Below, in pieces: positions 2,773 through 32,000 of a stretch of 32,000 nucleotides of DNA (positions within the stretch are counted from its first letter, which is position 1; each line of letters starts with the position of its first letter). The notes below the pieces were generated by a model, which saw only the letters and a list, made by a program, of their open reading frames with translations, did no database searches and had not been told where the DNA came from. Source of the DNA: Candidatus Saccharimonadota bacterium (GTDB lineage: Bacteria > Patescibacteriota > Gracilibacteria > BD1-5 > UBA6164); assembly GCA_965227835.1 (NCBI GenBank), contig OZ245768.1:1457122-1489121 (forward strand), read 5' to 3'. Both the position numbers and the translations under genes were made by a program.

Positions 2773-3960
2773 TTACAACATTTCTTTTAAAAAATCTATT
2801 CCTAGTTCACGAAAGTTATAATCATATCAATATATAGGTTTTAGGTTTGTATATTCAAGACATTTTTCTAAAATTCTCTTATCCATTCTTCAATATCTTG
2901 AGCTACATCATGATATGATTATATATTCTTTTCATATATAAAATGAACTTCATCAAATTATTTCATAATTATTATATTTTAGCTCTATTTCACCATGATA
3001 ACCTGCTCATAAATTAGCCATCTCATCTGTATCATCCATTATCGTAAATAAATCTTTTAATCATTCTATTTTATGAGTTATTTGGACTTTTTTATTTCAA
3101 AAAACCAGCTGGAAAGTTTTTTTATCTTTTAGATAAACTAATAGGCATTTTCAGCAATCTCAAGGGTATAAATTTCCTAATAAACTAAAATTACATAAAT
3201 TGAGCATATGCAATGGAATATAACTTTCTTTTAGATAATCATTCACAGATTTCTCAATAATAATTAAATCTAATTTTTTCTTAAAAGTCCTTTTTTCTTC
3301 TAGTTTTTTATTCTCTTCAACTATTCTTGCTATTTCCTCTTCTTCTATCTTTTTTTGCTCTTTAAAAGAAATTTCATTTATTACTTTATTATAACTTTTT
3401 CAATATATAAAACTATACTCTTCTTCTAAATCTTTTGATACATCATTTGTTATTCACATATCATCTAATGATTTTTTGTCATAATATATTGAATCTAGGT
3501 TTGGATTCTCTAGTAATTCTTTTGCTCTCATTTTACAATATTCTAAATATTCATCAATATAACTAGATTCATCTACACTAGGCAAAAATACTTTTTCTTC
3601 ATAAGAGTCACAAAATTCTAGTTTTTCTTTTATTCCACATACTTTTTTTATATAAAAAGCTGATTGAATCACATTTTTTCATGAAACTCTTTGAACTAAG
3701 TCAATTATGTCTCAATTCTCTAAACATCAATAACAATAATAACTTCAATGATCTTTGTATATTTTAAAAGAAGCATTTACTTCTTCGTGAAAGGGGCATT
3801 TAGAGTATTTATTCTTACCCACCTTAATTCATAGACTTTTAGCAACTTTTATTATATCTCATTTTGATATTATTAAATCAATAGAAGAGGCTTTTAAGCC
3901 TCTTCATAAATGGGTTTTTTCAACTTCAAAATAGGAATGTTCATTTTCTACACGAATCAT
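2773..3960 (-). CDS. CHC2 zinc-finger (DnaG-primase N-terminal-like) protein, 395 aa, no recognisable TOPRIM
   Basis: ATG 3960 to TAA 2773-2775, translated fully under table 25. It reads KYSKCPFHEEVNASFKIYKDHGSYYCYGCLENGDIIDLV, the CPFH...C.GC primase-type zinc-finger pattern. The C-terminal 200 aa are unassigned. Confidence 0.7.
3334..3551. repeat. 218-bp intragenic duplication, copy 2 (pairs with 2443..2660)
   Basis: See copy 1. Confidence 0.85.
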
Positions 3961-4338: not shown

Positions 4339-5133
4339 CTACCAAATTTCCTCATTAAATATATTTTTTCTAAAAATTTCATCTAAAAGTTCTACTGGTA
4401 TTTTTCTTGAATGATGCTTTGAGGCTCTTTCCTCTATAAGTTTCATTTGTTTGTCTAAAAACTCATTTATAATTTTTATTTTATTTCCAGAATCTAGTTC
4501 GTCTCATGACTTCTTCCTCATAATAAGAACATCAATTTCTTCTCTTAATTCTGGACTTATAAGTTCACAATCATCGTATAGCTTTTGAAATTCCATCGGT
4601 GGGGCATAATTATATTTTTCTATCCATAAACAAGCAAGAACGGGTCTTAGTACATAAAAATATTTTTTTATTCTAACTTCATCTTTTTTTAGGTATTCTC
4701 TAAAATTTCTCTTTGCCATATGAAGGTAGTGATATATGTAGTTTTTTGGTGAGAAGTATTTTGTTTCTATTTCTAGTATATTTTTTTGAAATTCATCATT
4801 TTTTCTATAAATAATAGGTGATTTAATCCATTCAGAGAAGCTAGGATTTCATTTTTGAAATAGATATAAAGTTTTTTTTATATCCCAGCCGTTAATGTCT
4901 ATTTCATCTAATATAGGGTATTCAATTACATCTCTTTTTTTATCAATGGATAAATAGTATTCTATTTTATGTTTGTAAATAAATCTTACATCAAAATCAC
5001 TATTTTTGGACTCAAATCACCAAGCTCTTGATCAAGATTCTACACCAAATAATATTTTTACATTATGTTCTTTTTCGCAGGTTTTGAATCTTTCTTGTAT
5101 TTCTTCAGATATGTCTTTTGGTATTTTGTTCAT
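4339..5133 (-). CDS. Pol-beta superfamily nucleotidyltransferase, RlaP/PF10127-like (264 aa)
   Basis: ATG 5133 to TAG 4339-4341. Reads [25 protein letters not shown] (the GS...D.D nucleotidyltransferase motif) and KKYFYVLRPVLACLWIEKYNYAPPMEF. Confidence 0.7.
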
Positions 5134-5300
5134 TTTTTATAAGTATTAATGACACATAAAAAATATGATTATTTTTTATAATCTAACAAAAATATCTATT
5201 GTGTCAATATTTCGAGTTGCAAAAAACGGGCTAGTATCAATTATGTGTGATTTTTTTGTTTATATTAAACTAACCTATAAATTTTTTTGATATATAGATA

Positions 5301-5375
5301 GTAAATAACATGCAGATAGAAACTTCCTAAAATAGAAAATGGCTAAAGCCATCTGTTGAAAAGAATATGAAATCA
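5301..5375 (-). repeat. dispersed hairpin element, copy A
   Basis: Core on the minus strand is CAGATGGC-TTTA-GCCATTTT (5337-5355), with conserved flanks (tcaacag upstream, ..aagtttctat downstream) shared with copies at 16572, 19689, 28189 and 27977. Confidence 0.7.
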
Positions 5376-5465
5376 AAGAGCTAAATCTCTCTGCTTACTA
5401 AGAATAAAAGAATTATTTTTTTGCAGAATCTTAATTTTTTAGGGTTTCATTAAATAAGATTAGAA

Positions 5466-5682
5466 TTATAAAGTATAGATCTTATCTGATACTTTTTCAA
5501 TTTTTGAAACTATTTTCTTGTCTTTCATCATCTTATCAAAAAAATTCTCTTCAATGTCAAAATTTACTATATTAGGTTGTCTCGTAAAGTATGTAATGAA
5601 ATATCTTAAAATAGCACTTCTATCTACTCCTTTCTTTTTATAGGCTTCTAAAAAATCTTTTTTTTAATTTTAAATTGTTCAC
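5466..5682 (-). pseudogene. ribbon-helix-helix (CopG/Arc-like) gene interrupted by a frameshift in a homopolymer
   Basis: GTG 5682 VNNLKLKK runs into a T8/A8 tract (5658-5665). After a 1-nt shift it continues KDFLEAYKKKGVDRSAILRYFITYF...YTL to TAA 5466-5468. The shifted frame has no start codon before residue ~45. Confidence 0.45.
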
Positions 5683-5733
5683 TATGTTAATAGAAATTTG
5701 AAACTCTTATTTATTAAAACAAAAAGTAACTTA

Positions 5734-5762
5734 TTGAATACAAAAATTGATTTTATTATAAT
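5734..5762 (+). promoter_or_regulatory. candidate promoter of the methyltransferase gene
   Basis: TTGAAT (5734-5739), 17-nt spacer, TATAAT (5757-5762), 45 nt upstream of ATG 5807. Confidence 0.4.
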
Positions 5763-5806
5763 AGTTTATATATTATATACATATTCTAATATTAATATAA
5801 AAAATT

Positions 5807-6868
5807 ATGTTGAATTGATTATCTTTATTTGCTAATGTGTGAATAGCAGAATTTTATTTGAGAGAACTATGAATAAAAGTAGTGCTTGCAAATGAATTAT
5901 TAAAAAAAAGAGCTAATTTATATAAACATTTTCATCCTAGTAGTAATATTATTTGTTGAGATATTACAAAAAATGATATATATAATAAAATATTAGAAGA
6001 ATCAAAAAAAGCAGATGTAGATTTTGTTATGGCAACACCTCCTTGTCAATGAATGAGTATAGCTTGAAAAATGAATGAAAATGATCCAAGAAATTCACTA
6101 ATAATGAAAGCTGTTGAAATCATAAAAGAGTTAAACCCTAAATATTGATTAATAGAAAATGTTCCTTGATTTTTAAAAACATATATTCAATATAATTGAG
6201 AAAAAATATTAATTACTGACTATATTAATAACGAATTATGAGATAATTTTAATCTAAAATTTGATATTTTAGATGCCTCTAAGCATTGAACACCTCAAGT
6301 TAGAAAAAGAGCCTTTGTTTTAATTTCAAATAAAAATACTTGAAAAGAAATTAATTTTCCCAGAGAACAAAAAGAAATAACTGTAGAAGATGCAATTTGA
6401 CATTTACCAAGTTTAGAAAGCTGAGAAACATCAAATATAGAATATCATAATTCTAAAAAACATAATAGTAAACATATATTATGGATGAAGAATACACCTA
6501 CTTGAAAAACAGCATTTGATAATGATAAACACTTCCCTCAAAAAGATAATTGAGAAAGAATAAGATGATTTAATACAACGTATAAAAGAATAAATTGGGA
6601 TAAACCAGCGCCTACAATTACCATGTGTAGTTGAGCAATTTCTTCTCAAAATAATGTTCATCCTTGAAGAAAAAAAGATAATTGAGAATTCTCTGATGCT
6701 AGAGTTCTTACATTAAAAGAATTATTTATACTAATGTGATTACCAGATAATATTAAATTACCCAATTGGGCTAGTGATAATTTTATAAGGCAGGTCATTT
6801 GAGAATGAGTACCTCCTATTTTTATTAGAGAAATTTTAAAAGAAATAAAACAAGCGGATTATAATTAA
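5807..6868 (+). CDS. DNA (cytosine-5)-methyltransferase, 353 aa
   Basis: ATG 5807 to TAA 6866-6868. Motif I LFANVGIAE, motif IV PPCQ[TGA]MS at 6038-6058, motif VI ENVPGF, motif VIII QVRKRAF, motif X GEGVPP. Confidence 0.9.
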
Positions 6869-6869
6869 T

Positions 6870-7796
6870 TTATCATCTTTTATTAAATTGTAATCAGTGA
6901 AAAGCTTCATTCTTTCAACTTCATTTCATTTGCACTGTTATATTTCATATATGAAAACTTCAATTTTCAGTTTCTTTATATCAATTTAAACAACTTTCAG
7001 AAATGACTTCATCCATATTTTTTATATAAAAATCAACTACTTGTGTTGAAGAATATTCATTGTTATTTACCAAATAATAGTCAGCAAAATATTCTTTTTC
7101 TGAAAATCATTCTTTCAAAACAATTTCTGTAATCTTTTTTTGATTTTTATTAAAAAAGTTTTTTATTATATTTCTTTCATTATCAGTTAATTCATTTATT
7201 AACCATCTATTTCTTCTTCATTGCTCTAGTTGAAATAAATTATTTAAACAATTTATACATTCAATATCATTTTTTGATATTTTAGTTTTTTCTTCTAATT
7301 CGTTTAAACATAATTTTTGTAATTCACTTAAATTATTCCTATTTTCAATTAAAAGTTTTGAGGGCTTATAATTTCAAAATCAACAAAATTTTGATAATCA
7401 AATATATAATTCATCTGAAAATTCTATTAAATTATTTTTTATAATCTCTCTAAAATTTTTAACATTAGTAATTTGCACTTGAATACTTCAACTAGAAGAT
7501 TTAATAGATATTCATTTTTTTGTTATAAAATCATCTTTTTCAAATATTATATGTATATCTGCTTTAGGTGGTTTTTTTTGTCATCAAAATCTATTTTTCA
7601 CTTTTTTAGGAGATTTTTCTGCATATATTTTGTAATCTTTAAAATTATTTATTCATAAATCCTTTGAAATATATTCAACTATTTTATATCACTCTTTTTT
7701 TGTTTTATAATTATTTATTAATTCAACTATAATATCTTCATATCAATATCAATGAAATCGTCAATTTTCTCAAGAAGCTACTAAATCTGTAACCAT
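6870..7796 (-). CDS. putative type II restriction endonuclease (308 aa), family not identified
   Basis: ATG 7796 to TAA 6870-6872, phased line by line with no TAA/TAG. It is convergent with the MTase (stops 1 nt apart) and sits directly downstream of a C-protein gene. KADIHIIFEKDDF...GISIKSSS resembles a D...(S/E).K nuclease core. Confidence 0.5.
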
Positions 7797-9304: not shown

Positions 9305-9372
9305 ACTTTTAAAAAACTCATATATAACATTCTATATTCTATTTTTGTCTATCATCCCCCAATTTTTTTATT

Positions 9373-9427
9373 CCCTCTCCTTCAAAGGAGAGGGTTAGGG
9401 TGAGGTTTTTACGGGTTAGGGTGAGGA
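9373..9427. repeat. GC-rich repeat element, copy 1
   Basis: CCCTCTCC-ttcaaa-GGAGAGGG hairpin followed by TTAGGGTGAGG ttttt ACGGGTTAGGGTGAGG. An inverted relative lies at 27783..27873. Confidence 0.7.
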
Positions 9428-9489
9428 TCTATCCTTCTTTCTAAGCAAAAAATTATGATGAGTATGAGCGATGAGACTTTCTAAACTAC

Positions 9490-10179
9490 CTAAATTCAAT
9501 AATCATAACTACTAGGAGTTGAAAACCATTTAGGTTCTGTGCTTAATCATTTTTTAGGATGAGTAAAAGAAAAATTATAAAAATTAAAATAACCTAAATC
9601 TAAAAACATCCTACCCACAATTTCATCTTTACTTATAAAACTATCTCTCTTAGTTGCCTCACATGAAAAAGAAAAACAAGTCCTTGAATCACTTGAATGA
9701 GCCCTATTATCTCACATCAAAAAATACTTTCACTCAGGAACTCTGTAATTATACTCCACTTTCAAATTTCAAACCTTTGTATTTCAAGAATTTGATAAAT
9801 TTAAATATGGCTCATCCAATTTTATAAAATTATAGGTAGAATCATTCTTCAAAAAAACATCTCAATCTTTAATTCTCACTGTATCTCCTGGGACTCAAAT
9901 AATTCTTTTTATAAAATATTTTTTATCCTTGTTTACTCAAGGTTTAAATACAACCACATCACCCCTTTTTAATTCTCATTTTTTAATCTTTGGTATATTT
10001 AGATAAGAAAACCTATCTACTATTATGAACTCTTTATCATAATAAGAATCAGCCATTGATTGCCCACTAATTTGAAAAGGTTCTGCTATAAAGCTCCTAA
10101 TAATAACAACTATAACAACTATCCAAACCAAATCCTTCAAAAAATCAAAAATCTCTCATTTTATTCACTGCTTTTCCAA
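9490..10179 (-). CDS. lepB: signal peptidase I, ~229 aa
   Basis: TAG 9490-9492. TM segment LVWIVVIVVII, then SGQSM (catalytic Ser), GDVVVFK, KRIIGVPGD (catalytic Lys) and GDNRAHSSDSR. The ORF has no in-frame ATG upstream of the catalytic SGQSM box, so TTG 10179 is assumed as the start. Confidence 0.8.
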
Positions 10180-10257: not shown

Positions 10258-13200
10258 TTATTTGCTTAACCAATCTGGAACATCCATTCCATCATCCCAT
10301 AAATCTCAAGGTGTTTTTTTATTTTCCTTTTTATCCTTATCATCATCTTTTTTATTCTTCAAACTTCAATCATCTTTTTCATTTTTCTTTGTTTCACCAT
10401 CTTTTTTTCCTTCATCTTTTTTCTCGGGATTTTTACTTTCTTTAACATCATCTTTTTTATCTGACAGCTTATCTTTGTTTCATACATTATCTCAATCCTC
10501 TAAACTATTCCTCTTTTCTTCTCATTTTTTCTTCTCTGAAACATTCTCAACTCATTTATTTTCTTTACCAATACTTGGATTCTTACTATCCAGTTTTTTA
10601 TCTTCTTTTTTATTTTTTTCTTCTTGCTTTTTGTATTCTAAACTTCAGTCACCTTTTTCATTTTTCTTTTCTTCTAGTTCATTTTTTTCAGGATTTTTAC
10701 TGCTTTTATCATCACTATCTTTTATATCATTACTAACATTATCTTCTTTCAAAGGTTCTACTTTTTTATCTTCTTTTTTATCCAAAGAAGTCTTGTTATC
10801 ATTTTTAGAAATATCTTCAATATTATCTTTTTTAATCTTTTCTTCTTTATTATCCTTTTGTAAACTTCAAGTTTCTTTAGTCTTATAATCGTTTTTCTTT
10901 ATTTCCTTTGTATCTACTTTTTCAAATGTTTTTTCAGTGTTTTTATTCTCTTTGATGTCATCCTTTTTCTCTGATTTATTATCTTTTTTCAATTCACTAT
11001 TTCAATCTTTTATCCCCATTTTTTTATTATCTCATTTTTCGTCTTTGTCAATGTTTTTCATCTTTTGGTTATTTTTATCGTTATTTGTATTTTTATTATC
11101 TAATTTCCCGTTTTCTTTTTTAATAGAAAAATCTTTTTTCTCATCTGCTTTAACCTTTTTCTCTGTAGAAGTTTTTTCACCCATAGAAGTATTTTTAATT
11201 TGATCTTTATCGTTTTTTGGAAAATCCTCTTCAACATTTTTTATACCTTTTTCATCTTCTTGATTTAAATCATCTTTTAAAAATTTCTCATCTTTTGTTT
11301 TAGGAGCTTTCAAACTATCTTTTTTATTTTTCTCTCAAATCTCTTCTAAACCTGAACCAATTTTTGAATCAGTTTCTTCTTTAGGTTTTTCTTCCAAACT
11401 TCATTTTAACCAATCTGGTATATTGCTATCATCTTTTTTTTCTTCATCTTTTTTTAAACTTTCTTCACCTTTTTTATTATTAGATGCTTCCTGTAAACTT
11501 CATTTTAACCAATCAGGTTGATTATCTTCCTCTTTTGTAACATCATCTAAATTATTTGGAGTTTCTTCCTTTTTATTTCCTATAAAATCATTTTTAGGTT
11601 TTTCTAGTTTCTCATTTTTAAAATCTTTTTTATCTTCAGTTAAAGTACTTTTTTTATTTTTGCTTGATTCATTGTTACCTTCCACATCTTTTATACTACC
11701 AAGTAACCAATCAGGAGTATTTCATACTTTTTCTTTTTTATCTTGTGTATCTTCATTTCCAAAACTAGCCATCTTATTATCTCAGGTATTTTTTTCAGTT
11801 ATTTTGTTATCTACCAGTTTACTATCTTTATCATCTTTTAATCACTCTTTAGAAGATACTTTTTCAAAATCTGTTTTAAAATCCGAAACTCAAGATTTAT
11901 TTTTTAAATCATTAGAATTTTTTTCCTCATTTTTCTCACCTTCTCATTCTTCTACTTTTTTTTCTCCACCAAATATATCATCTTTCTCTAGTTCTTGAGA
12001 AGAGCTTTTTTCTTTAACAAAATCTTTAAATCATTTATCTTTATTTTTATTTGATACTTTGTAATAAACAAAATATCAAGCTCATCAAATTCCAAGTATG
12101 AAAAGTATTCATAAAAGTATGTATATAATTGTTTTTAATATACTACTTATTATAGAACCTCATTCCTCTTCTTGTATTTCTACTATTTCTTCTTCTGGTA
12201 TATTTGACACATCTCAAAATATTAAATTCTTCAATGTCATTCAAAAATTAATTTTGTCATCATTAATAAGGTTTCTATCATTTCTTATAACTTCCCATAT
12301 CTTATCTCAAAGTATTTTATTTTGATCTATATTATCATTAGCCTTGATAACTTCTAGTGTAGAATCTACATATTCTTCACAAGTACCATATTCCTTTGTA
12401 TCAAATTCACATTCCAAATTTTTAGGAGTCAATCATTGTAAAGCTCTAAGTGCTACACTTTTTAAACTTCAGTCATCACTTTCCCTCAAAAGTAAATCTT
12501 CTAGTTTTTCTATTATTTCGTCTCTATTTTCTATCAGAGAACTACTTAAAAATCATTCAAAATCATAAATGATTTTTGTTCTTTCTGTTTCATCATTCCA
12601 TTCATCTTTTAGTCTTGCTACATAAGTCTTTGCTGTTCTTCAATCATCTCATACTATACTAGAAACTAAATCTTTTAGCTCTTCCAGTTTTTGCCTTTGT
12701 TCATCCGTAACTCATTCAAAAACTACACTTTTTAAATTTATATCTTCATCTTTTATATATGATTTTACGATTTTATAATCCTTACTTATTATTACCCTTC
12801 AATCTAAATCTTTTACATAAACTCTTATTTCTTGGACTTTATTGTTATTAAGTTCTATTTTCAAATAATTTTCATTTTTAGAGCTTATATCTTCATCATC
12901 ATCTTTTCAACCATTCAAATCAGAGTCTTTTTCCAAATTTATATCTGCTGCTATTTGTGAAAAATCCTTTTCATCTTGAAATAACAACACACTTACATCA
13001 GGTATTCTTTCATCAAGCTCAATAGTATTTTCAGAATCTTCTATAGGATTCATAAAAAGCATACCAACTTTACTTTTTTTTGATCTAAGAAGATTAGAAA
13101 CATTTTTTGATACAGTTTTTTTAATTGTTTTTGCTTTGTTTCAATCAGATATAGAAAGTTCAACCTCGTGAGATTGTTTTCAGTCTCTATATGTATGTTC

Positions 13201-16059
13201 AAAGTAATCTTTGTTTTCTACTTTATTTCAATCTCAAAGATCAAATACAAAATCATCATATACTCAAGTAGTTCTATTTATAAATATAAACTTATTTCAT
13301 ATAGAAACATAATCAAAACCAGGTATCAAACTGTTAGCTACATTTATCTCTATATTTCTAGTATTACTAAATCATTTATTCTTTACTTTTAGTTTAGCAT
13401 AATATTTTCAAGGTTTGTTATATACATGAGTTATATTTGGGTCTCTTGTATCCAAATCATAAAATCAATCTCCATCAAAATCCCAAAAATAAACTACTTT
13501 TTTGGATATATTTTGTTTTAAAATATTCTGCACTTTTGCATTAAATATTACCTCATCTCATACAGATACACTATTATCAGGAGTCTTTAATTCCACAATA
13601 GGTACATTTATGTTATTTCAAGCAAGAGTTAGAGAAGTTGATTTTCATATATCTTTTGATGAAATTCTAGAATCAGAATCATCCGTAAGAAGTGCCACAA
13701 AATAATAATTTCATGTTATCTTTGGTAATACAAATCTAGTAGAGGGTCCTGTAGTTGCCCTAAAATCTTGAGGTTCATCATCTAAATCTGTATAATAATA
13801 CCATAAATATGAAGTAATTACACCATCTTTATCTATAGCTCATATAGCATTCACATCTACTATTACAGGTTCAGATTCTAAATCATCTGTTCTAGCAACA
13901 AGTTTTGATAAACTTGGATTTATATTTTCTATTTTTATCCATATTTTTTTTGTATCGCTAGTTCTATTTTTTTGGCTTGTTACTTTTAATATAGCTGGGA
14001 AACATCATAGTTCATCAAATTTATAATTGGTATTTTTTGATGTAAAATATTTATTGTTTCATATTTTAAGTGAGTAGTCTAGATTATTATTATTTCAATC
14101 AATATCTATACTATCTGAAGCATCAAAAGAAATAGGTGTCAGCCTATCAGCTATATAGGCATCCTGACCTTTACAGGCATTTTTTTTCAACACAATACTA
14201 TTTGTAGCATTTGAAACTTTCATAATAGCAACAGGGGAATCTCAATCTCATACATAAGCTACTTTGCTATGAGTGTTTGATTTTCAAAATTTATCTATTA
14301 CCTTTAACCTAATTTCAAACATACCTGTTTTTTGATATTTGTGTGATATTTTTCTTTTTACTCAACCTGTGGAATTGTTCCCATCACCAAAATCCCATTC
14401 AAAAAACTCTGCTTCAGGACTTACTGCTTCAAATTTTATAAAATCTCATCTTTTGATAGCTCTAGGATTTACAGAAAAATCTAGGCTCAAAATAGATGCT
14501 ATATTAACTTTATCTTCTTTTATTCATTCTATATTATCGGGATCTTCTACTCTCAAAACTACACTATGATCTCATATACTATCAAATGTATAAAATCATG
14601 TTGATCAGTTGAAATTTGTTTCTTCCAAATTGACTCTTACACCATTTACCTCCCAAAAATATTTTAATTTACCAGTATCTACAAAATCAGGGTCAAAACT
14701 ATCTGTAGCATCTAAAAATACTCTGTTTGGTTTGTTTTTTTCTGGTATTGTTGATTTAAACTCAGCTACAGGAGCTCTGGAGTTTATATAAATATTTTGA
14801 GTATCTATACTTTTTTCAGATGATCATATTCAACTTACTTCAAGTTTTACATTGAAATGTCATTTATTTTTGAAATTGTATGTGAAAAGTTTTGTTTGAT
14901 CAGAAAATATTATTTCATCATTTATAGTATCAACTATTTGCCAGCTGTATGTTAGATTTTCGTCATTACTAGAATTTTTAGCTCTAAAAGTAAATTTATC
15001 TCACAAAAATCACTCTTTGGGTGATACATCTAGAGTTGCTATTGGATCACGTATAGATATTACAAATTTTTTTTCAATGGTTTTTCATAGATTTGTTGTC
15101 AATCTCAAGGTTACATCATAATCTCATTGTTTGTTGTATTTTACTCTTTCTACTCTTGGTTCTCAAGAATAGTTTTCTCTTTCTCAGTTACCAAAATTCC
15201 ATTGTGTTCTTATAAATTTAGCAGAACCTGTAGGGGTGGAACTTGTGGCATCAAAAAGTAATCAATATTCAGCTTGTTCTGGAGTAAACTTTAATCTATT
15301 TTTGAATCATAGTCTGTCTCCATTTACTTTTATTATAAAAGAAGCTAGTTTTTCTCTAACTTGTACTTTTACCTCTCATCTATAAGGTATTACATCCATA
15401 TAACCTTTGGAGTTTTTATGGGCAGATCTTATATCAACAAAAACTGTAAATATTCATTCTTCTTTAAATGTATAGTTTATAGATGGTCATGTTCAAATAT
15501 TTACTTTTCTAGAACCATAATCCATCCACCATACATAATTGTATTGTGGTATTTTTGTTCCTGTTGGGTCAAATACATTTGCTCTTAGAGTTACATTAAA
15601 AGGTGCATTTCAACTTTTTGGTAAACCTGTAACTTCTCATGTGATTTTTGCTACTGAACTTTCATCTAAATATGCTCAAATAGCTTTTATAAGTCATATA
15701 TAAGCAGCATCACTGCTACTATATTTCAAAGCTTTTTCTATAGCTGTATTTAGATTACTTAAAAGATTATCATTTTCTAAATTATTATCAGGTAGATAAT
15801 TAGAACTTTTAGATACCAAATCTTTTAGAGTTCCTAGACTTCCAGTATCAAGTATTCAGTCTATTTCCCATTTACTTTTTAAATTGAAAAACTCTTTTGT
15901 GATTAAATACCTATATTCATTGAAAGAATTTTTATCAACTGTTTTAAAAACTGTATATCAGTTTGGATCTTTCTGAGCTTTTACTGTATTAACCAAAAAT
16001 TGGCTAGTTATAAATAAACTTATTGCTATCAGTAAAATAGATTTTAGTATTTGTTTCAT
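10258..16059 (-). CDS. giant surface protein, 1933 aa: signal peptide, multiple PKD/Ig-like repeats, one TM helix, 600-aa K/E/D/N-rich tail
   Basis: ATG 16057-16059 to TAA 10258-10260. I phased all 97 sequence lines and found no in-frame TAA/TAG. N-terminus MKQILKSILLIAISLFITSQFLVNTVKA. PKD-type motifs WNFGNGE, EWDFGDGN...HKYQKTGMFEIRLKV, FWDFDGDG...HVYNKPGKYYAKLKV, FDLGDGN...HTYRDG. TM segment IIYILLGILFILGIGGAGYFVYY at about 12061-12130. Confidence 0.85.
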
Positions 16060-23439: not shown

Positions 23440-26400
23440 TTAACTCACTTTTTTTACTTTTTCATTTCTTATTTTTCACCCAAACAAAGACAACATATAT
23501 TCTATAAAACTTTTATTATTTGCAAAATTTTTTGTATTAGACCTAACCCTCCCAACTGTAATAACCTTAAACTTCACTTCTTTATCCATTTCTAAAAAAT
23601 CTTTTAGGATTTTTACTTCATCCACATTTTCTGATTTTTCCAGTGAGTTATAATCAAAATCAATTTGATAATTTAGTCATATTTTTTTAATAGATCATAT
23701 CATATATTTTGAAGCCCTTATTTTCAACTCTATCAAATCAAATAAATTTTTTAATCAAACAAGGCTCTTATCTGAAAAATCCATTTTCATATTCTCCAAA
23801 TCATCCAAATCAAAAATCATTTCAGCTTCTCTATAAAAATTTATTTTATCCAGCTCTGAATCAAACACATCATCTGGAATATACAAATCCATATCTAAAT
23901 CTATTTTAGTATCTATACTCAAATCAAGACTATCTGTAGAAGAATTTTTCTCTTCATCACTAGATTTTGAAATAAGAGAACTCAACTCTGCCACTTTTTC
24001 TTCTATAATTTTTAGATACAAATTAATCCCAACTTGGTTTGCTTGTCAACTTTGTCTAAAACCAAGCAAATCTCATCATCATCTTATTTCCAAATCTTTC
24101 ATAGCCAACTCAAAACCCGCTCAAAGATAACTATATTCAGCTATAGTTTTCAATCTTTGAGCAGTATTTGTTTTCAGATTTTCTCACTTATAAAGTAGAA
24201 AACAATATCCTTTTTTTTCAGACCTTCAAACCCTTCATCTAAGCTGATGAATTTGGCTTAATCAAAAACTCTCGGCATTGTTTATTATAATAGTATTTAC
24301 ATTGGGGAAATCTATTCAGTTTTCTATAACTGTGGTTGATAAAAGTATATCATATTTTTTATTTTTAAAATCAATAACTGCTTTTTCTAAGTCTGTTCAA
24401 GCAAGCTTCCCATGAGCTACTATTATTTTTTTGTTTGGAAATACAGACTTCAAAATAGTTTTTATATTTTCTATATTTCAAACTCTATTATGCACAAAAA
24501 ACATCTGTCCTTTTCTATCAAATTCTCTTTTTCAAGCAGTATTTATAATATTTTCTGAAAACCTGCTTATTATCGTTTCTATATCCTGTCTACCATGAGG
24601 AGCTGTTTTTAAGATAGATATTTGTCTAATATTTGATAATGCCATATTCAAACTTCTAGGTATAGGTGTAGCACTCATAGCAATTGAGTCAATATTTACC
24701 TTGAATTTCTTTACTTTTTCCTTGTCTGAAACTCAAAATTTATGTTCTTCATCTGTTATTATAAGTCATAGATTTTTATATTTTATCTTATCTGTAAGAA
24801 GCTTATGAGTTCATATTATCAAATGTATTTCTCATTTTTCAAGCAAACTCATAGTTTCTTTTATGCTTTTTTCGTTTTCAAGTCTAGTAATTACTGATAT
24901 ATTTAAACCAAAACCCTTAAATCTTTCTTTTGCTTTTTGATAATGTTCATAAGCCAAAACTACTAGAGGGACTATCAATATAGATTGTTTTTTGTTTATA
25001 AAACTTCTATATATAGCATTAAAAACTACCTCTGTTTTTCCAAATCAAACATCTCATATCAAAAGCCTATCTGTTGGGGTTGGTTTAGACATGTCATCTA
25101 AAATTTCTTTTATTGCTTGTATTTGATCCTGTGTATGTAAAAATGGAAACGAGCCCCTAAATTTATCCTCTAAATCTTTATTTTCTACAAAACTAAAACC
25201 TTCTCTTTTAACTCTTTTGGCATATATTTCTACCAATTCTTCTGCTATCTCTTCGGCTTGTTTTTTTACTGCTTTTAGTTTTTTCTCCCAAGAATTTCAG
25301 GAAAGAGAAGTTAGCTTTGGATTTTCTACTCATATATATTTATTTACTCTTGATACTTCTGATATAGGAACAAAAAGCCTATCTTCTCATAAGTATTCTA
25401 TTTCTATATATTCCTTGATTGTCTCTTTTGATTCTTTAGAAAATACACTTTTTTTTACAATATTTTTAAAAATACCTATTCAATGTTCTATATGCACTAC
25501 ATAATCTCAAGTTTTTATTTTCAACAACAAATCTAAATCGGTGCTTATTCTCTTGCTTCTTTTTTTTATAAATATCTCTCTTATTATATCATCACAGATT
25601 ATTATCTCTTTTTTTGTTTCAAAACTTTTCAAAAAAAATCAGCCAGTTTCAAATATTTGTGAGTTTTTTATATTGTTATATTCCAAGAAATTTTTTATAG
25701 TTTTAATATTTTTCGTATAAAATTTAGAATTTTTCTTACAAAGAGAATTTTTTAACTCGGATATATTTTTTATTTTTGGTATAACTATTTCTAAATCTTT
25801 TACGAAAAAATCTTTGTTTCAAATATAATCAAAAAAACTCAAATTTTCTATATTTTTTGTTAGACTATCATAATGCCTAGAAAAATTTAAATTATCAAGC
25901 ACAAAAAAACAATCTTTTGGGATTATTCCAAAAAAGTTTTTTAAATCTCAAAAACTTTCTTCTTTCAAAACATCTTTTGATTCAATTTTTTTATTGTTTC
26001 AAATATTTATCTTTTCTGTTTTTTCACCATTATTTCTTATATCATCTACCTCATCTCACCAAAAACTTATCTCATATTTATTTTTATTATCAGGAGATAT
26101 TATTTTTAAAGTGTCTCATTTTTTTATAAAACTAGCAGGCTCTTCAAATTCAGAAAAATGATAATTTAGCTCTATAAGTTTTTTTGTTATCTCACTAAGA
26201 CAATATTTTTTAGATACTTCAAATTCAAAACTAAAGTGCTTTAATTGTTCTATACTTACTATATCTATGCTTTCTAGATTATTTATAGATGTTATAAAGA
26301 ATCATTTATTGCTAAATACCAAGTCGTTTAAAACCCCATAGTTTTCTACAACTCTACAATCAAAATTTAAAAAACTAAATATTTTTTTATAGCTTTCAAG

Positions 26401-26514
26401 AGTTTTATCATCCTCTACAATGACTAAACTTTTTTCTTTTTTTAAATTTTCACTCAAAAATAAGGCTTTACTAAAGGAGTTTCATGCATTTATATAAGAT
26501 GTTTTTTCTAACAT
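23440..26514 (-). CDS. mfd: transcription-repair coupling factor, 1024 aa
   Basis: ATG 26514 to TAA 23440-23442, phased line by line. Walker A [TGA]DV[TGA]FGKTE at 25030-25056, DEEHKFGV, SATPIPRSL, HGKL and QLRGRVGRS. Confidence 0.9.
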
Positions 26515-26579
26515 TTTTGCTTTTACAAATAATTTTTGAGGATTATAATAAGAAGGTCTTATAAATAAAGTTGTATTTT

Positions 26580-27167
26580 ATGAATTTGTTTTTAAATGCT
26601 ATATCTGAGTCTTGATCTATAATACTTTTTGATGATAAAAAAGAAATAGTCTTAAAAAAAGATATTGAGGTTTTCTGAAATGAAAGTGAAAAACTAATAG
26701 ATATTTTTGATATGTTTTTGGCTGAACAAAATTTATCTTATAATGATTTGGAAAATATTGTTGTTGTCGTTGGACCTGGAAGCTTTACTGGAGTAAGAAC
26801 TGTTTGTCTTTTTGTGAATACTATAAATTTCGTTACAAAGAAAAATTTAACTCCTATTAGTTTCTTTGATTTATACAGCTCCTATCCAATAATAAAAACT
26901 TGTTCTAAAAGGGATAGCTTTTTCAAAAAAGATAAAAAATCTAAAATAGAAGCTTTTAAAAATGGGGATATATTAAATTACTTAAAAGAAAACAAAATAA
27001 AATACTTGTATTGAGAAAACCCTAATCTTATTACAAGAGATATTTCACAAAATCAGTATTTTAAAATACTTGAAAATATAGATTATCATACTATAATCAA
27101 AAATATAAAACTAGAGAAATTAAAGAGTGTAAAACCTCTACATATAAAAAAACCTAGTATTTCTTAA
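26580..27167 (+). CDS. tsaB: tRNA t6A37 biosynthesis protein TsaB (YeaZ-like), 195 aa
   Basis: ATG 26580 to TAA 27165-27167. Reads IVVVVGPGSFTGVRTVCLFVNT. Confidence 0.7.
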
Positions 27168-27179
27168 AATTTTAAAACT

Positions 27180-27692
27180 ATGTTACAGCTTGAAAATCTA
27201 AGGGAGTGAGAAAAAATAGAAAAGGTAATTAGAAGGCACTGGATAGTTTTTGTAATGCTTTGATTACATGGTTTTTTTGGCCTTTTTATAAATGTGGTTT
27301 TGCATATGATTTTTTGATTTGAACTTTTGGTTAATATTTTTAGTTTAGTTTATCTAAATTCTTTCATAGTTTTTATGTATATAAGTTGGATAAATCATGA
27401 GCTTGATATGTATGTAATAACGAATTATAGAATAATTTGAATAGAGCAGGTATGATTTTTAAATAGAGAGGTATCTCAGTGTAGTTTAAATGATGTGCAA
27501 GAGGTAAATAGTAAAACTAAATGATTTTTTTCTAATATGTTTAATTATTGAGAGCTTACGATTCAAACTGCTTGAAATGCGAGTAATTTTAGAATGGAGT
27601 TTGTGCCAGATTCTCTTGGTACATCTAAGAAGGTTTTAAATATAGTTGAAGAAAATAAGTATCCTTCTGGTGGTGTGGATAAACTTAGTTAA
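27180..27692 (+). CDS. membrane protein with bacterial PH (bPH_2/YdbS-like) domain, 170 aa
   Basis: ATG 27180 to TAA 27690-27692. Two TM segments, then YVITNYRIIGIEQVGFLNREVSQCSLNDVQEV...NYGELTIQTAG. Confidence 0.6.
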
Positions 27693-27729
27693 AATAACTA
27701 GAATAAATTTTATTCTAGTTATTTTTTTA
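27693..27729 (+). terminator. rho-independent terminator
   Basis: AATAACTAGAATAAA / TTTATTCTAGTTATT hairpin followed by a T run. Confidence 0.7.
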
Positions 27730-27782
27730 GGTTTGAAATATCACTATAGCCAGATTAAATCTGATTTTAATTCTCTCTAACT

Positions 27783-27873
27783 CATCCCAACCCGTAAAGC
27801 CCTAACCCTCTCCGGGGGAACCTCACCCTCTCCATCTATACCTCACCCCCAACCCCTACTCTCCTTAGAGGAG
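27783..27873. repeat. GC-rich repeat element, copy 2 (inverted relative to 9373..9427)
   Basis: CCCAACCCGTAAAGCCCTAACCCTCTCC...CCTCACCCTCTCC...CCTCACCCCCAACCCC...CTCC-ttag-AGGAG. Its reverse complement shares GGAGAGGGTTAGGG..TTTACGGGTT.GG with copy 1. Confidence 0.7.
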
Positions 27874-27967
27874 ATTAGAACAGAAGGAATAGAATATAAA
27901 TTACTATTAAAGAGTAGAGAATAATAAAATAAATTTTACTCTATAAATTATTTTTTAATCTATTGTT

Positions 27968-28000
27968 TCCCTTCAACAGAGGGCTTTAGCCCTTTGCCCA
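27968..28000 (+). repeat. dispersed hairpin element, copy E (stem variant)
   Basis: ttcaaCAGAGGGC-TTTA-GCCCTTTGccc (27977-27996). Same flanks as the CAGATGGC..GCCATTTG copies, but with both stem arms changed. Confidence 0.6.
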
Positions 28001-28139
28001 TTAACAATATTTGTATTCAATCCTTTGCTCAATTAACAATATTTGCATTTAGCCCTCTGCTAATTAACAATATTTGCATTTAGCCCTCTGCTAATTAACA
28101 ATATTTGCATTCAGCCCTTTGCATAGTAAGATTTTTGCA
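27985..28139 (+). repeat. tandem repeat, about 5 x 31 bp
   Basis: Units start at 27985, 28016, 28048, 28079 and 28110, with consensus TTTAGCCCTCTGCTAATTAACAATATTTGCA. Units 3 and 4 are identical. Each unit contains the right half of the hairpin element. Confidence 0.8.
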
Positions 28140-28177
28140 AAATAAAACTTAATTGCAAATTATCCTAAATTTAGTAT

Positions 28178-28215
28178 ATTCCTTTAGGCAGATGGCTTTA
28201 ACCATTTGTCCCATA
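28178..28215 (+). repeat. dispersed hairpin element, copy D
   Basis: taggCAGATGG-CTTTAA-CCATTTGtcc (28189-28208). Confidence 0.6.
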
Positions 28216-28284
28216 TTACATTATATCCTTTCAGGGTCTGTTGCGTTTTGATTTTAAAAAGAGTTTTAATTAAAAAATGTAGTA

Positions 28285-28322
28285 AATAGATGAAAAATTT
28301 ATAAGTTTCATCTATTTTTTGT
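28285..28322 (+). terminator. rho-independent terminator closing a noncoding plus-strand unit
   Basis: AATAGATGAAA (28285-28295) / TTTCATCTATT (28306-28316) followed by TTTTTGTT. Confidence 0.55.
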
Positions 28323-29432
28323 TAAATTATAATCATATTTATATAAAATTTAGGATTTTAGACACAATCCACCTAAGGAAACTAACCTAGGTTATTCGGA
28401 TTTCCTCTAAAACAACCAATCTTTTGAGATTAAAAGATATAGCCTCCATAAATGCAGTAAACTGGTTTTTTACTACAGACTTATACCTCACTCTATGATT
28501 CATTTTTGAAAATACCCTCTCATAAGGAGATCTAAGTTTAGAATAAAACTTATCTTTATCCTTGTTCTTATCTTTCATATTATTTTTCTTTATTGCACAT
28601 AGATGTAATCACTTCTTTTTTGTTGATATTACAGCCGGTCAAATACAATATCACTTATCAGCATATACTGCTCATGAACTTGGTAATACATGCTTCATTC
28701 ACTTTGCATCTGTTACATTAGCTTGAGTTATAGCTATCTTGTTTATCATTCAAGATTGCATATCAACACTAGCATGTTTTTTATAACCATACCAAAATTT
28801 ATTTTTTCACTTAGATCAAATTTTAGCTTCCTTATCATTAGCAACTTTTGGAAGAGTTTCATTATTCATTTTTTCATATCATTCTTTTATTCATTTATCT
28901 CTTTCTTCCCATAAATTAGCTTTAGTAACTAAATGAGAAGCATCTACAAATGTAAACACTTCACTCATATAACCCTTATTTGATAATTGATTTTTTAAAT
29001 CTTCAAATATCTTTGATAGTTCTTTTGTTCATATCTTTTTTCTTGCTCTTGAGAATATACTATGATCTGGAGTTTTATCTGTTAATTTAAATCAGCAAAA
29101 CCATTTACCAGCTAAATTTTCTGCAAGATATTTCTCTAACTCTCTATCTGATAGATCTTCCATAAACTGGATTAGTAAACATAGAAATAATTTTTTTACT
29201 CAATATCATACATGAGTTTTTCATAGATCTATATTTTTTAGTATTTTATTTACTCAATCAAAGTTCCACAATTTCTTAAATTTACGATATTGATGATTTT
29301 CTGGAATTAGCTCGTTTAGGATAACAAAACTTATTTGATTTGATTCTCACATAGGTATTTTCTTAGAATATAATTACTATCTAATTATATCTCTTTTTTC
29401 TCTTTTTAATAGTCAAAGTTTAATTTACAACA
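28321..29432 (-). mobile_element. IS5/IS1182-like insertion sequence (ends approximate)
   Basis: Single transposase ORF. A weak inverted similarity links gttaaattataatc (28321-) with the reverse complement of 29415-29432 (gtaaattaaac). No clear target duplication was seen. Confidence 0.4.
28387..29352 (-). CDS. IS5-family DDE transposase (DUF772 N-terminal + DDE_Tnp_1), 321 aa
   Basis: ATG 29352 to TAG 28387-28389. Reads FMEDLSDRELEKYLAENLAGKWFCGF...PDHSIFSRARKKIG, YADK[TGA]Y, and C-terminal SPYERVFSKMNHRVRYKSVVKNQFTAFMEAISFNLKRL. It extends track ORF 28387..28578. Confidence 0.85.
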
Positions 29433-29435
29433 AGC

Positions 29436-29470
29436 TCTTTCAACAGAAAGCTTCATCCCTTTGCCTAGTA
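29436..29470 (+). repeat. degenerate hairpin element, copy F, upstream of the pilin-like genes
   Basis: ctctttcaaCAGAAAGCTTCATCCCTTTGcctag aligns with copy E (cccttcaaCAGAGGGCTTTAGCCCTTTGccca), but the stem is decayed. Confidence 0.45.
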
Positions 29471-29528
29471 GAAATTTTTATAAAAAAACTTTTAACTTTC
29501 CAACTTTTAACTCTTAACTCCCCCTCAA

Positions 29529-30316
29529 ATGAAAAACAAACTAACCCTCCAACTAAAAAAAGCATTCACCCTAGTAGAACTAATAGTAGTAGTAACAATA
29601 TTAGCTATAATCTGAACAATATGATTTGTAAGCTATACAGACTATCTATCTTGAGTAAGAGATACAAATAGAACAGTACAACTAGAAAGTATATGAGATT
29701 GACTAAAACTATCACTAACAAGATGAAGACTTCCAATACCCGATGACTATATAGAAGTTAAAACTAATTGAAATACTATAGCATATCAAGGATATGCATG
29801 AGAAGAAGTACTAAAAAAAATTAAATATGATAAAGAAGGTAAAGACCCACTAGATAATACATATTTTTCATACTATGCTACAGACAATAGAAAGAACTTT
29901 CAATTAATGGCATTACTAGAAGAAACAAATGAAACTGTAAGTTTATTTAAGGGAGAAGTATTATCTAATGATATAGATTATGCAGATAGACAAGTTAAGG
30001 TAAGTTGAAAGAAGCTATGAATATTAACAGGGGGTTGAGATAATTTAAATGTACCAGTACAAGAGATATGAGAGATAAAAGATAATTGAGAATTAGATAT
30101 AGCTACTACACCAGATGAATATATATCCCATATAGATGATAGTGATAAGATTAGTTGAAGTTGAAGTGAATTAATAAAATCAATTTATAATTCTAGTTGT
30201 AAGAGGATACTAGAATCTAGCTTAGATAATTGAGATTGAATTTATAAGATAAATCCTGCTGGAACAGAAGAATTTGAAGTTTATTGTGATATGAGTACTG
30301 ATTGAGGGGGGTGGAC
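29529..30316 (+). repeat. direct repeat, copy 1 (5' 788 nt of pilin-like gene 1)
   Basis: Near-identical to 30871..31661, with scattered substitutions and one codon indel (LFKGEV vs LYNRREV). Identity ends abruptly after GATTGAGGGGGGTGGAC. Confidence 0.85.
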
Positions 30317-30854
30317 TTTAATTACTAGAATTATAACATGACTAAATTATTCTTGAAATATTGAAATGAATAATTTCTCTAACTCGTCTACAAAACATTA
30401 CTGAATTTCAAGAGATATTGTAAATAATCTAATTTATTGAGAACAAACAATACGATGATATTATAAGTATTATGATACAAATTTAGATGTAATTCAAGAA
30501 ATGATATATAAATTACATAATGTTAGATGAAATTATGCATCTTTATATGAAGAGGATAAGATATATATATTAGGGCAAAAAAGTGATACAGCTTTTATTT
30601 TAAATTTTAATGGTGACTCATGAGATGATTTTCGTGAGCCCTTAAACTCATGTTGATACGGAACAACCTTTGATCAATATTGGTATGAATCTTCTTGGTG
30701 AAACTTTACAGATCACTTAATACCTTATTTTTCAGTATATGATTGATGTACTTGAGGTATATATAATCAATGAGCTACTGTTATAAACAGTAAACAAAGT
30801 TCTCCCTACGATAAAACCTCTTGATCTTTTCAAGAATTGTACATTAAATTTTAG
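29529..30854 (+). CDS. type IV pilin-like protein (class III leader) with fibrinogen-related-domain-like signature, 441 aa
   Basis: ATG 29529 to TAG 30852-30854, with the C-terminal half phased line by line. N-terminus MKNKLTLQLKKA/FTLVELIVVVTILAIIG. Residues ~220-265 read SSCKRILESSLDNGDGIYKINPAGTEEFEVYCDMSTDGGGWTLI. Confidence 0.8.
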
Positions 30855-30870
30855 TATAAAAAAATAAAAA

Positions 30871-31661
30871 ATGAAAAACAAACTAACCCTCCAACTAAAA
30901 AAAGCATTCACCCTAGTAGAACTAATAGTAGTAGTAACAATACTAGCAATAATCTGAACAATATGATTTGTAAGCTATACAGACTACCTATCATGAGTAA
31001 GAGATACTAACAGAACAGTACAACTAGAAAGTATATGAGACTGATTAAAACTATCACTAACAAAATGAAGACTACCAATACCCGATGACTACATAGAAGT
31101 TAAAACTAATTGAGATACTATAGCATATCAAGGATATGCATGAGAAGAAGTACTAAAAAAAATTAAATATGACAAAGAAGGTAAAGAACCACTAGATAAT
31201 ACTTATTTTTCATACTATGCTACAGACAATAGAAAGAACTTTCAATTAATGGCATTACTAGAAGAAACAAATGAAACTGTAAGTTTATATAATAGAAGAG
31301 AAGTATTATCTAATGATATAGATTATGCAGATAGACAAGTTAAGGTAAGTTGAAAGAAGCTATGAATATTAACAGGGGGTTGAGATAATTTAAATGTACC
31401 AGTACAAGAGATATGAGAGATAAAAGATAATTGAGAATTAGATATAACTACAACAGGAGAAGAATATATATCTCATATAGATGACAATGATAAGATTAGT
31501 TGAGACTGAAGTGAATTAATAAAATCAATATATAATTCTAGTTGTAAGAGGATACTAGAATCTAGCTTAGATAATTGAGATTGAGTTTATAAGATAAATC
31601 CTGCTGGAACAGAAGAATTTGAAGTTTATTGTGATATGATTACTGATTGAGGGGGGTGGAC
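30871..31661 (+). repeat. direct repeat, copy 2 (5' 791 nt of pilin-like gene 2)
   Basis: See copy 1. Confidence 0.85.
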
Positions 31662-32000
31662 AAGATTTTGGTGGTATACTTGAAATTCTTGGCCTGTATG
31701 AGAAATAGATGTTTTAAAATATGATTTGTCTGACACTAATGTAAATTTAAATTTTTGATTTTCAAGAATTCCTTCAAATGTAAATCCCGAAAATCTTTTC
31801 ATAAAGTCCTGACATAAATTAAAATTAAATGAAAAAATAGATTTAATTTGGAAATTTGATCAAAATAATACTACAAGTAACAATATACTATGAGTATTAA
31901 GAGATAAAATATCTTGAAGTAGTGCAGGTGCTGTATGGAATCCAATTAATGATACTAATTATAAATGCGGTGGTTGATGTGATTATTTTTGGTATCAAGA
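30871..32000 (+). CDS. paralogous type IV pilin-like protein with FReD-like signature and a different C-terminal region (partial, runs off the window)
   Basis: ATG 30871, translated line by line to the window end with no TAA/TAG. The N-terminal ~263 aa are nearly identical to the upstream gene; after VYCDMITDGGGWT it diverges (RFWWYTGNSWPVGEIDVL...). Confidence 0.8.

Follow-up and report, generated by a model that had tools for sequence, protein, structure and literature searches.

Gracilibacterial prepilin-like proteins with a fibrinogen-like neck and unrelated C-terminal heads: a candidate family of modular type IV pilins

Among the closest known systems to the proteins discussed here are the modular pilins PilB and PilC of Streptococcus sanguinis, which are adhesins presented by type IV pili (Raynaud et al. 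2021, PMC8179133). In Dataset S1 of that study, the combination of a pilin with IPR002181 (architecture IPR012902-IPR002181; 8 + 2 proteins) is listed without comment, and this entry was all that a literature search for fusions of pilins with fibrinogen-related domains (FReDs) in candidate phyla radiation (CPR) bacteria returned. The bacterial fibrinogen-like module itself is curated as NF040941 (GGGWT_bact), and several homologues of the proteins described below are already named "fibrinogen-like YCDxxxxGGGW domain-containing protein" in NCBI records. Here, we analysed two adjacent plus-strand genes at positions 29529-32000 of a 32,000-nucleotide (nt) stretch of the Gracilibacteria contig OZ245768.1, to which we refer as the window; database proteins and database loci or contigs used for comparison carry P-numbers and L-numbers, respectively. 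Both genes encode prepilin-like proteins with a fibrinogen-like module, a fusion that a preliminary description of this DNA had taken to be apparently undescribed, which the records cited above make harder to maintain. New with respect to the papers searched are the size and copy number of the family in Gracilibacteria, the joining of one leader and stem to unrelated heads at a fixed junction, the replacement of a head at strain level and a conserved C-terminal strand.

Gracilibacteria and their relatives live as episymbionts or predators, have tiny genomes and have been cultivated barely or not at all. Type IV pilus systems are encoded in Gracilibacteria and Absconditabacteria, and Gracilibacteria express them (PMC11452946, PMC8080830). 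We consider it rather probable that the two window genes are members of a Gracilibacteria multigene family that encodes modular type IV pilins, the adhesin heads of which are shuffled by recombination. This reading is built on the architecture of the proteins, the pattern across the family, the mosaic structure of the genes and the replacement of a head at an orthologous locus, which are described in the following. With its constant pilin carrier and dozens of unrelated heads in multicopy, arrayed genes, the family would provide a concrete and testable candidate for a host-recognition repertoire.

Read with translation table 11, the region 29529-32000 yields short open reading frames (ORFs) alone, and stop-free segments of at least 100 amino acids add up to 1,598 amino acids over the window, compared to 12,758 amino acids when UGA is taken as a sense codon. 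With UGA as sense, two long genes appear on the plus strand. Gene 1 (29529-30854) encodes a modular prepilin of 441 amino acids under code 25 and ends with a TAG stop codon at 30852-30854, while gene 2 (30871-32000 and beyond) encodes a modular prepilin of at least 376 amino acids and continues past the window edge. UGA stands for glycine (code 25) and not for tryptophan, because it encodes the first glycine of the invariant GGGW motif (codons TGA GGG GGG TGG) and glycine positions of the pilin helix, where relatives using code 11, such as the Myxococcales locus L005, show glycine. In gene 1, TGA accounts for 31 of the 43 glycine codons. A spacer of 16 nt separates gene 2 from gene 1, and gene 2 lacks its own leader; it is therefore probably co-transcribed with gene 1. 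The database protein P0001 is the product of gene 1, identical except that UGA was read as tryptophan (code 4).

The N-termini quoted in the preliminary description, as well as the stretches SSCKRILE...YCDM.TDGGGWT, are present verbatim in both genes under code 25, and the assignment to prepilin-type proteins with a class III signal peptide is confirmed. In both proteins, the leader MKNKLTLQLKKA (29529-29564 in gene 1, plus strand) is followed by FTLVELIVVVTILAIIGTIG, i.e. a short basic leader precedes a hydrophobic stretch of ~20 residues with phenylalanine at +1 and glutamate at +5; the alanine at -1 is the family consensus. TIGR02532 matches the two window proteins with 23.5 and 23.8 bits (cutoff 16.3) and PF07963 (N_methyl) with 24.4 and 24.6 bits (cutoff 21.2), and in gene 1 a prepilin peptidase is predicted to cut before FTLVE. 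The AlphaFold model of P0001 contains a pilin module (amino acids 13-135; 29565-29933, plus strand), in which an α1 helix (residues 15-65) is followed by a four-stranded sheet (residues 72-79, 82-89, 114-118 and 124-130) with predicted local distance difference test (pLDDT) values of 82-96; the stem, with its 50-residue α1 helix and β-sheet, is modelled with pLDDT above 90. The same pilin fold, a long α1 helix on an antiparallel sheet, is predicted for P0001 and for its relative P0010 alike, and a weak GspG-like match covers amino acids 12-129 of gene 1. The pilin module is followed by a stalk domain (amino acids 147-220; 29967-30188, plus strand; pLDDT ~89-95), which is conserved throughout the family and carries no known family name. 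Pilin, stalk, neck and head form separate regions in the models of P0001 and P0010, and the presence of a pilin module together with an extra module (N_methyl plus Fibrinogen_C/GGGWT_bact) is what characterises modular pilins according to Raynaud et al. (2021).

The stalk leads into a fibrinogen-like neck, which comprises FReD subdomain A plus the first strand of subdomain B and extends over amino acids 223-265 in gene 1 (30195-30323, plus strand; SCKRILE...YKINP...FEVYCDMSTDGGGWT) and over amino acids 224-265 in gene 2 (31540-31665, plus strand). NF040941 (cutoff 30) matches gene 1 with 62.3 bits (E 3e-17, model positions 1-46 of 46) and gene 2 with 58.1 bits (E 6e-16, model positions 1-45). 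PF00147 (Fibrinogen_C, cutoff 22) scores 32 and 24.8 bits, but over profile positions 14-59 of 221 alone, in line with the earlier statement that only ~45 amino acids match the FReD signature; in the tryptophan-miscoded version of gene 1 the coverage reaches profile position 87. Throughout the family, C224 and C253 do not vary, the window genes carry the cysteine pair together with YCDM..GGGWT that characterises subdomain A, and the coding pattern for EFEVYCDM occurs twice in the window, with zero occurrences expected. Foldseek matched the model of P0001 to FReDs of ficolins, fibrinogen and intelectin over 42-52 columns with ~2 Å root-mean-square deviation, and the matched part corresponds to subdomain A and the GGGWT strand. 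A genuine fibrinogen-related subdomain-A module is fused behind the pilin in both genes.

Downstream of GGGWT, this similarity ends. As already remarked in the preliminary description, the sequence after the motif does not obviously follow the FReD consensus: Pfam coverage stops at profile position 59, subdomains B and P (~170 amino acids) are not recognisable in the window genes by Pfam or PDB sequence searches, and neither gene contains an alignable P subdomain. The CDM.TDGGGW match had been noted as a close parallel to the start of FReDs; in the two window genes it behaves as an isolated module. Of the proposed FReD lectin head on a pilin, the subdomain-A neck holds and a relative, P0010, models as FReD/X-type lectin, but the window heads themselves are not recognisably FReDs; a lectin head on these two genes is unproven, because the similarity ends at GGGWT and the head of gene 1 is modelled with pLDDT below 50, albeit from a miscoded query.

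The two window proteins are 95% identical through residue 263/264, the threonine of GGGWT, and have no detectable similarity beyond, a pattern that had not been noted previously. At the DNA level, the common block (789/792 nt, 95.6% identity) extends exactly from the ATG to codon 263 and is flanked by unrelated DNA on either side. For the constant stem of gene 2 (amino acids 1-264; 30871-31662, plus strand), comparison with the gene 1 stem gives a synonymous divergence (dS) of 0.128 and a ratio of nonsynonymous to synonymous divergence (dN/dS) of 0.19. The variable head of gene 1 (amino acids 264-441; 30318-30851, plus strand) is an orphan sequence: phmmer, run exhaustively against 1.84 billion representatives with a query that contained 14 glycine-to-tryptophan errors in the head, returned no relative, and a word-indexed search found none either. 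The head of gene 2 (amino acids 265-376 and beyond; 31663-32000, plus strand) is unrelated to it. Searched without the neck motif, both heads gave noise alone against the PDB sequences, and comparison with nine head-cluster profiles of the family by hhalign gave probabilities below 15% throughout. In the AlphaFold model of P0001, the stem is confident up to residue ~270, while the head (residues 273-425) remains below a pLDDT of 50, the modelled sequence being the miscoded one with the same 14 errors. Both heads are nevertheless genuine coding sequence, because their frames are open against chance expectations of ~1e-5 (gene 1) and 8e-4 (gene 2), the other two frames hold 9-14 stops each, and the use of TGA for glycine continues from the stems into the heads.

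A search with gene 1 retrieved 593 matching proteins, mostly from Candidatus Gracilibacteria, and nearly all of them align only with the N-terminal ~60% of the query. The family statistics given here are drawn from 120 listed matches of the 593, with subsets of 118, 115 or 111 depending on the analysis. Among the 120, 107 contain GGGW, and 79, including P0001 and P0005, are mistranslated with UGA as tryptophan (code 4 instead of code 25), which turns GGGWT into WGGWT and corrupts ~7% of the residues. Such records, which make up two thirds of the family entries, hide glycine-rich motifs and degrade structure prediction. P0005 is encoded in the 1.49-Mb source genome of the window, which contains at least this third paralogue with yet another head. 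The mean frequency of the most common residue is 0.42-0.81 before residue 263 and 0.14-0.28 after it. The heads are 93-223 amino acids long, and 95 of 118 members end with a hydrophobic-x-hydrophobic-R/K pattern, compared to a background of 1.5% per position. By BLAST, 115 heads fall into 47 clusters, in which both window heads are singletons, and profile comparisons between head clusters by hhalign stayed below 15% probability; therefore, a common fold for all heads is not demonstrable by sequence. Among 111 members, Pfam recognises N_methyl in 102, Fibrinogen_C in 66 and COLFI in 12, and no other domain recurs.

Similar heads were found in only 9 of 48 pairs with stems that are at least 80% identical; eight stems of 91-97% identity carry seven unrelated heads, and some heads are common to proteins with stems that are only ~45% identical. 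Tandem arrays of two to three genes occur in other metagenome-assembled genomes (MAGs) of Gracilibacteria, and one MAG contains at least nine copies in the parts covered. Within arrays, stems are 70-92% identical and heads 17-23%, which is the random level. The same head is kept across genomes at L010 and L011 and in P0002 and P0044. Because orthologous heads are retained in this way, the heads are stable cassettes and not hypermutating sequences.

For P0010, a member with correct glycine coding that belongs to the largest head cluster, AlphaFold with the family alignment reached a pLDDT of 79.6 and a predicted template modelling score of 0.77, and the resulting model comprises the 50-residue α1 helix, the sheet of the pilin, another small domain, the neck and the greater part of the head. 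The top 50 Foldseek matches to PDB structures were all XEEL, lamprey lectin, ficolins, FIBCD1, angiopoietins or fibrinogen with a probability of 1.00, and the alignments comprised 112-145 columns at 4-5 Å and up to ~295 columns for XEEL. In this type of head, the predicted fibrinogen-like fold reaches well past the 46-residue motif, and subdomains B and P are largely present in the predicted structure.

The replacement of heads can be followed at the locus of gene 1 itself. The gene is preceded by a non-coding leader of ~480-520 nt, which has been duplicated along with the stem and is found at paralogous loci with 88-97% identity (L014 and L015, both 9350-10000; L016, 2300-2947). Its distal part (27801-28233, plus strand) shares 88-97% nucleotide identity with the DNA that lies upstream of P0002, P0003 and P0004 (L015, L016 and L014, respectively), and its proximal part (29437-29528, plus strand), directly upstream of gene 1, is 96-97% identical to L014, L015 and L016. 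The leader contains a tandem array of 31/32-nt repeats (27985-28122, plus strand), which has 4.3 copies in the window according to Tandem Repeats Finder and ~1 in L014. Also present is a C-rich tract (27790-27860), an uncommon feature in a genome with 25% GC. An Rfam scan of the leader assigned no family, and a promoter and terminator scan gave nothing above background and no convincing sigma-70 signal. The leader is split 92 nt upstream of the gene 1 start codon by an insertion sequence (IS) of the IS5 family (28234-29436, minus strand), which encodes a transposase (ORF 28387-29352; Pfam DUF772 and DDE_Tnp_1) and is flanked by a CTTTCA duplication. This element is a recent insertion, because it is absent from the syntenic L016, and it is not part of the pilin system.

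The strain represented by L016 is ~97% identical to the window in the flanks and has the same TsaD-like and bPH_2-type genes upstream. It matches window positions 25389-28233 and 29437-30317 at 96-97% identity and then diverges: past the breakpoint, L016 continues with the head of P0003 and an IS110 transposase, while the window continues with the head of gene 1 and gene 2. At the orthologous locus, the head has been replaced exactly at the GGGWT junction. The breakpoint is the same within ~6 nt in four comparisons, i.e. with L016, with L014 and L015, which are paralogues at other loci of the same sample as L016, and with gene 2.

These sequence data argue for recombination, because the constant block is young and homogenised and the heads are ancient and unrelated, because the four breakpoints coincide and because a different head is found at the orthologous locus. 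Homologous recombination and gene conversion would generate and maintain the head repertoire, with the near-identical constant module of ~500-nt leader and 789-nt stem as substrate. They would homogenise the stems within a genome and move or replace the heads, always at the end of homology at codon 263. The simplest explanation for the sharp boundary is that conversion or crossover tracts stop where homology ends, which coincides with the last structurally constrained codons, and no special site is required. In the γC domain of fibrinogen, the last strand returns to the sheet of the B domain, and the conserved C-terminal strand of the family fits this arrangement. With respect to the junction DNA, the only two runs of at least six G in the 32 kb (30306-30311 and 31651-31656) lie exactly at the stem/head junctions, within TGA GGG GGG TGG, and GGG represents only 3.7% of the glycine codons. 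That such a run acts as a slippage site producing headless stems is pure speculation. A G-tract hotspot for recombination or slippage was rejected as a feature of the family, as the G6 run is common to L014-L016 and absent from other Gracilibacteria genomes.

Each protein consists of a constant carrier, made up of the prepilin signal peptide, pilin module, stalk domain and a fibrinogen-subdomain-A neck that ends with GGGWT, and of a variable C-terminal head of 90-220 amino acids, in most family members with a terminal hydrophobic-x-hydrophobic-Arg/Lys strand. If the modular-pilin reading is correct, a prepilin peptidase would cut after Ala12, and the hydrophobic α1 helix would place the protein in type IV pili, where, because of its bulk, it would most plausibly sit at the tip or occur in low abundance. 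The head would thereby be displayed as a binding device for ligands on hosts, prey or surfaces, and glycans would be the likely ligand of the FReD/intelectin-like heads, since some heads of the family are of this kind. We infer processing by PilD, incorporation into pili and adhesion from the signal peptide and the fold, from the FReD/lectin character of the commonest head, from the phage analogues discussed below and from the published type IV pili of these lineages.

Several observations weigh against this interpretation. No pil or gsp genes, including those for PilB, PilC, PilD and PilM-Q, were found in the 32-kb window or beside the paralogues examined. The head of gene 1 lacks the usual C-terminal R/K ending, and a role of the two window heads as lectins or adhesins is suggested by analogy with the family only. 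The model of gene 1 and the exhaustive head search were both based on the sequence whose head contains 14 glycine-to-tryptophan errors, so that these two negative results carry less weight. In addition, the IS5 element separates gene 1 from most of its leader, and the gene pair may be mis-expressed or silent.

Sulfolobus sugar-binding proteins with prepilin-like signals are the model for a different explanation, in which the class III signal would serve for processing and for anchoring in the membrane or envelope, comparable to a bindosome, and the heads would capture nutrients or ligands at the surface, the proteins not being incorporated into extended pili. This is in agreement with the arrangement of the genes, which are scattered or form arrays of their own and in none of the loci examined adjoin pil genes, with the bulk of the proteins (~440 amino acids), with the steric clashes that arose on modelling a modular pilin within the body of the filament (Raynaud et al., PMC8179133), and with the dependence of CPR cells on scavenging (PMC11452946, PMC8080830). 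We nonetheless regard it as unlikely, as the stem is predicted to be a complete and well-folded pilin module with a 50-residue α1 helix as polymerisation interface, as stems are homogenised within genomes, which is expected if all of them fit one filament or machinery, and as ABC-transporter partners are not adjacent. Heads could also vary mainly to escape pilus phages or host recognition, as in pilin antigenic variation, with no diversification of ligand specificity. Pili are common phage receptors, and the combination of a constant assembly part with a variable exposed part resembles Neisseria pilE/pilS; however, every copy is a complete gene, equipped with a start codon and a signal peptide and, at separate loci, also with the conserved leader, promoterless silent cassettes are absent from the window, the heads are wholly unrelated and not variants of one head, and the conservation of orthologous heads between genomes points to functional constraint on each of them. 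Evasion is thus improbable as the driving force. A pilE/pilS-type mechanism was rejected as well, since all copies seen carry an ATG and a signal peptide, and neither head or stem fragments nor a second copy of the head DNA occur elsewhere in the window. The same lack of a second head copy, together with heads that differ over their whole length and in length, does not match a diversity-generating retroelement, and no reverse transcriptase-like gene turned up among the called window genes that were scanned, which are part of the window genes.

A reading as polymorphic toxins could draw on the sharp junction at a conserved motif, behind which the C-termini are unrelated, on the tandem arrays and on the replacement seen between strains at one locus; in addition, the lineage includes predators. 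In such a scenario, a trunk ending in GGGWT, comparable to VENN in CdiA, would be followed by variable effector domains that are delivered to prey. This was rejected as very improbable, because no small immunity-type ORFs are found downstream, where only the 16-nt spacer follows gene 1 and a transporter and a transposase follow the genes in L014 and L016, because none of 111 members contains a toxin Pfam domain, because the commonest head has a predicted lectin-type fold, and because the conserved C-terminal strand suggests one scaffold and not independent effectors. It could finally be argued that the 3' parts are junk, produced by a frameshift or mis-assembly after a recent tandem duplication, given that both window heads are orphans and that an IS adjoins the locus. 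We give hardly any credence to decay or artefact, as both heads are open in frame with the TGA-glycine usage of the stems, their DNA sequences are not frameshifted copies of each other, and hundreds of proteins in independent assemblies show the same pattern of stem and head. None of these four alternatives fits as well as the modular-pilin reading.

The unit of neck and head is not restricted to pilins. A scan of reference genomes with a degenerate EFEVYCDM pattern detected the module in Gracilibacteria pilins and on non-pilin carriers. In the Falkowbacteria loci L008 (781-804) and L009 (3203-3226), neck and variable head are located at the C-terminus of proteins with a PilX-like N-terminus, and in the Myxococcales locus L005 they are C-terminal on a protein with Cys-rich repeats. 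A giant repeat protein with a LamG-like region also bears the unit C-terminally. Together, the loci with the unit on non-pilin carriers are L008, L009, L005, L002 and L001 (Polyangia), and the unit ends with ...V[R/K]. Judged from these sequences, the unit looks portable between surface-fibre carriers, and the bacterial "GGGWT" module would be the conserved neck of a far more variable C-terminal unit that is reused on several surface fibres. A more far-reaching proposal, which we consider doubtful, is that leader, stem and GGGWT neck form a dedicated socket for programmed head switching, in which recombination at the junction draws on a genomic library of structurally unrelated heads, exchanges them from one expression context to another and retargets the pili to new hosts or prey, with PilX-like and further carriers of other phyla employing the same unit of neck and head. 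If true, this would be a cellular counterpart of the host-range switching of phage tail fibres, with heads that plug into a FReD-derived frame of neck and C-terminal strand.

A 1,933-amino acid protein encoded elsewhere in the window (10258-16059, minus strand) combines a signal peptide and multiple PKD repeats with a transmembrane segment and a long tail rich in Lys, Glu and Asp; by its sequence, it appears to be a giant surface protein such as has been reported for Vampirococcus. An RlaP-family nucleotidyltransferase is encoded at 4339-5133, and a probable restriction-modification pair consists of a C-5 cytosine DNA methylase (5807-6868) with a HinP1I-like restriction endonuclease (6870-7796). 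The adjacent minus-strand genes at 1939-2763 and 2773-3960, one of which encodes a Bac_transf sugar transferase and the other a protein with a CHC2 primase-type zinc finger, contain a near-identical segment of ~75 amino acids (LEYCKM..ELLENP..EEEYSFIYGK..YNKVIN.ISFKE), which suggests a partial duplication or recombination between them. At L014, a PrgI-like/TraC-like/T4SS_pilin cluster (4863-6452), as found in conjugation-type type IV secretion, is located a few kb upstream of the paralogue P0004.

With respect to known systems, the window proteins resemble PilB (a pilin with a vWA domain) and PilC (a lectin pilin) of S. sanguinis. In all of them, a prepilin motif and a pilin module carry a grafted C-terminal module that is foreign to pili, the total length is ~400-450 amino acids, and adhesion by presentation on the pilus is proposed. 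In contrast to the modular pilins of Raynaud et al., the carrier in the window is longer and consists of pilin module, stalk domain and FReD-A neck; furthermore, the family is multicopy and arrayed, and combines one near-identical carrier with many unrelated heads at a fixed junction, which is not discussed in that study. Both window proteins match NF040941 well above the cutoff, and many homologues bear its name, but the model covers the short module alone and is silent on the pilin carrier and the variable heads. With eukaryotic FReDs and X-type lectins, they have in common the subdomain-A disulfide pair and Y.I.P...VYCDM..GGGWT, and most members of the family have a returning C-terminal strand; in the predicted model, 112-295 columns of the P0010-type head can be superposed on XEEL, ficolin and FIBCD1. 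As with intelectins, the sequence similarity is limited to the N-terminal part. Different from FReDs, the window genes have no recognisable FReD after GGGWT, the family heads (93-223 amino acids) are mutually unrelated, and residues of a Ca2+ or ligand pocket are not identifiable.

The exchange of a variable C-terminal part behind a constant N-terminal part by homologous recombination with a sharp boundary is reminiscent of Neisseria pilE/pilS and of CdiA VENN/Rhs. In contrast to both, silent cassettes or immunity genes are missing, each copy is complete and separately translatable, and the heads are whole unrelated modules. Phage tail fibres are known for the modular exchange of their heads. 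In BFVD, the viral structures that best match the P0010 head belong to proteins from cyanophage and Pseudomonas phage with annotations as fibrinogen C-terminal, collagen NC1 or tail-fibre-like. In proteins of the phages P-SSM4, S-ShM2 and PaBG, a FReD-like globular head is likewise located at the distal end of a fibrous carrier. This carrier is a tail fibre and not a pilin, and the resemblance to phage fibres with FReD-like or collagen-NC1-like tips exists at the level of the fold only (template modelling scores of ~0.25-0.38). These predicted structures hint that FReD-like heads are a shared solution for receptor binding at the tip of a fibre.

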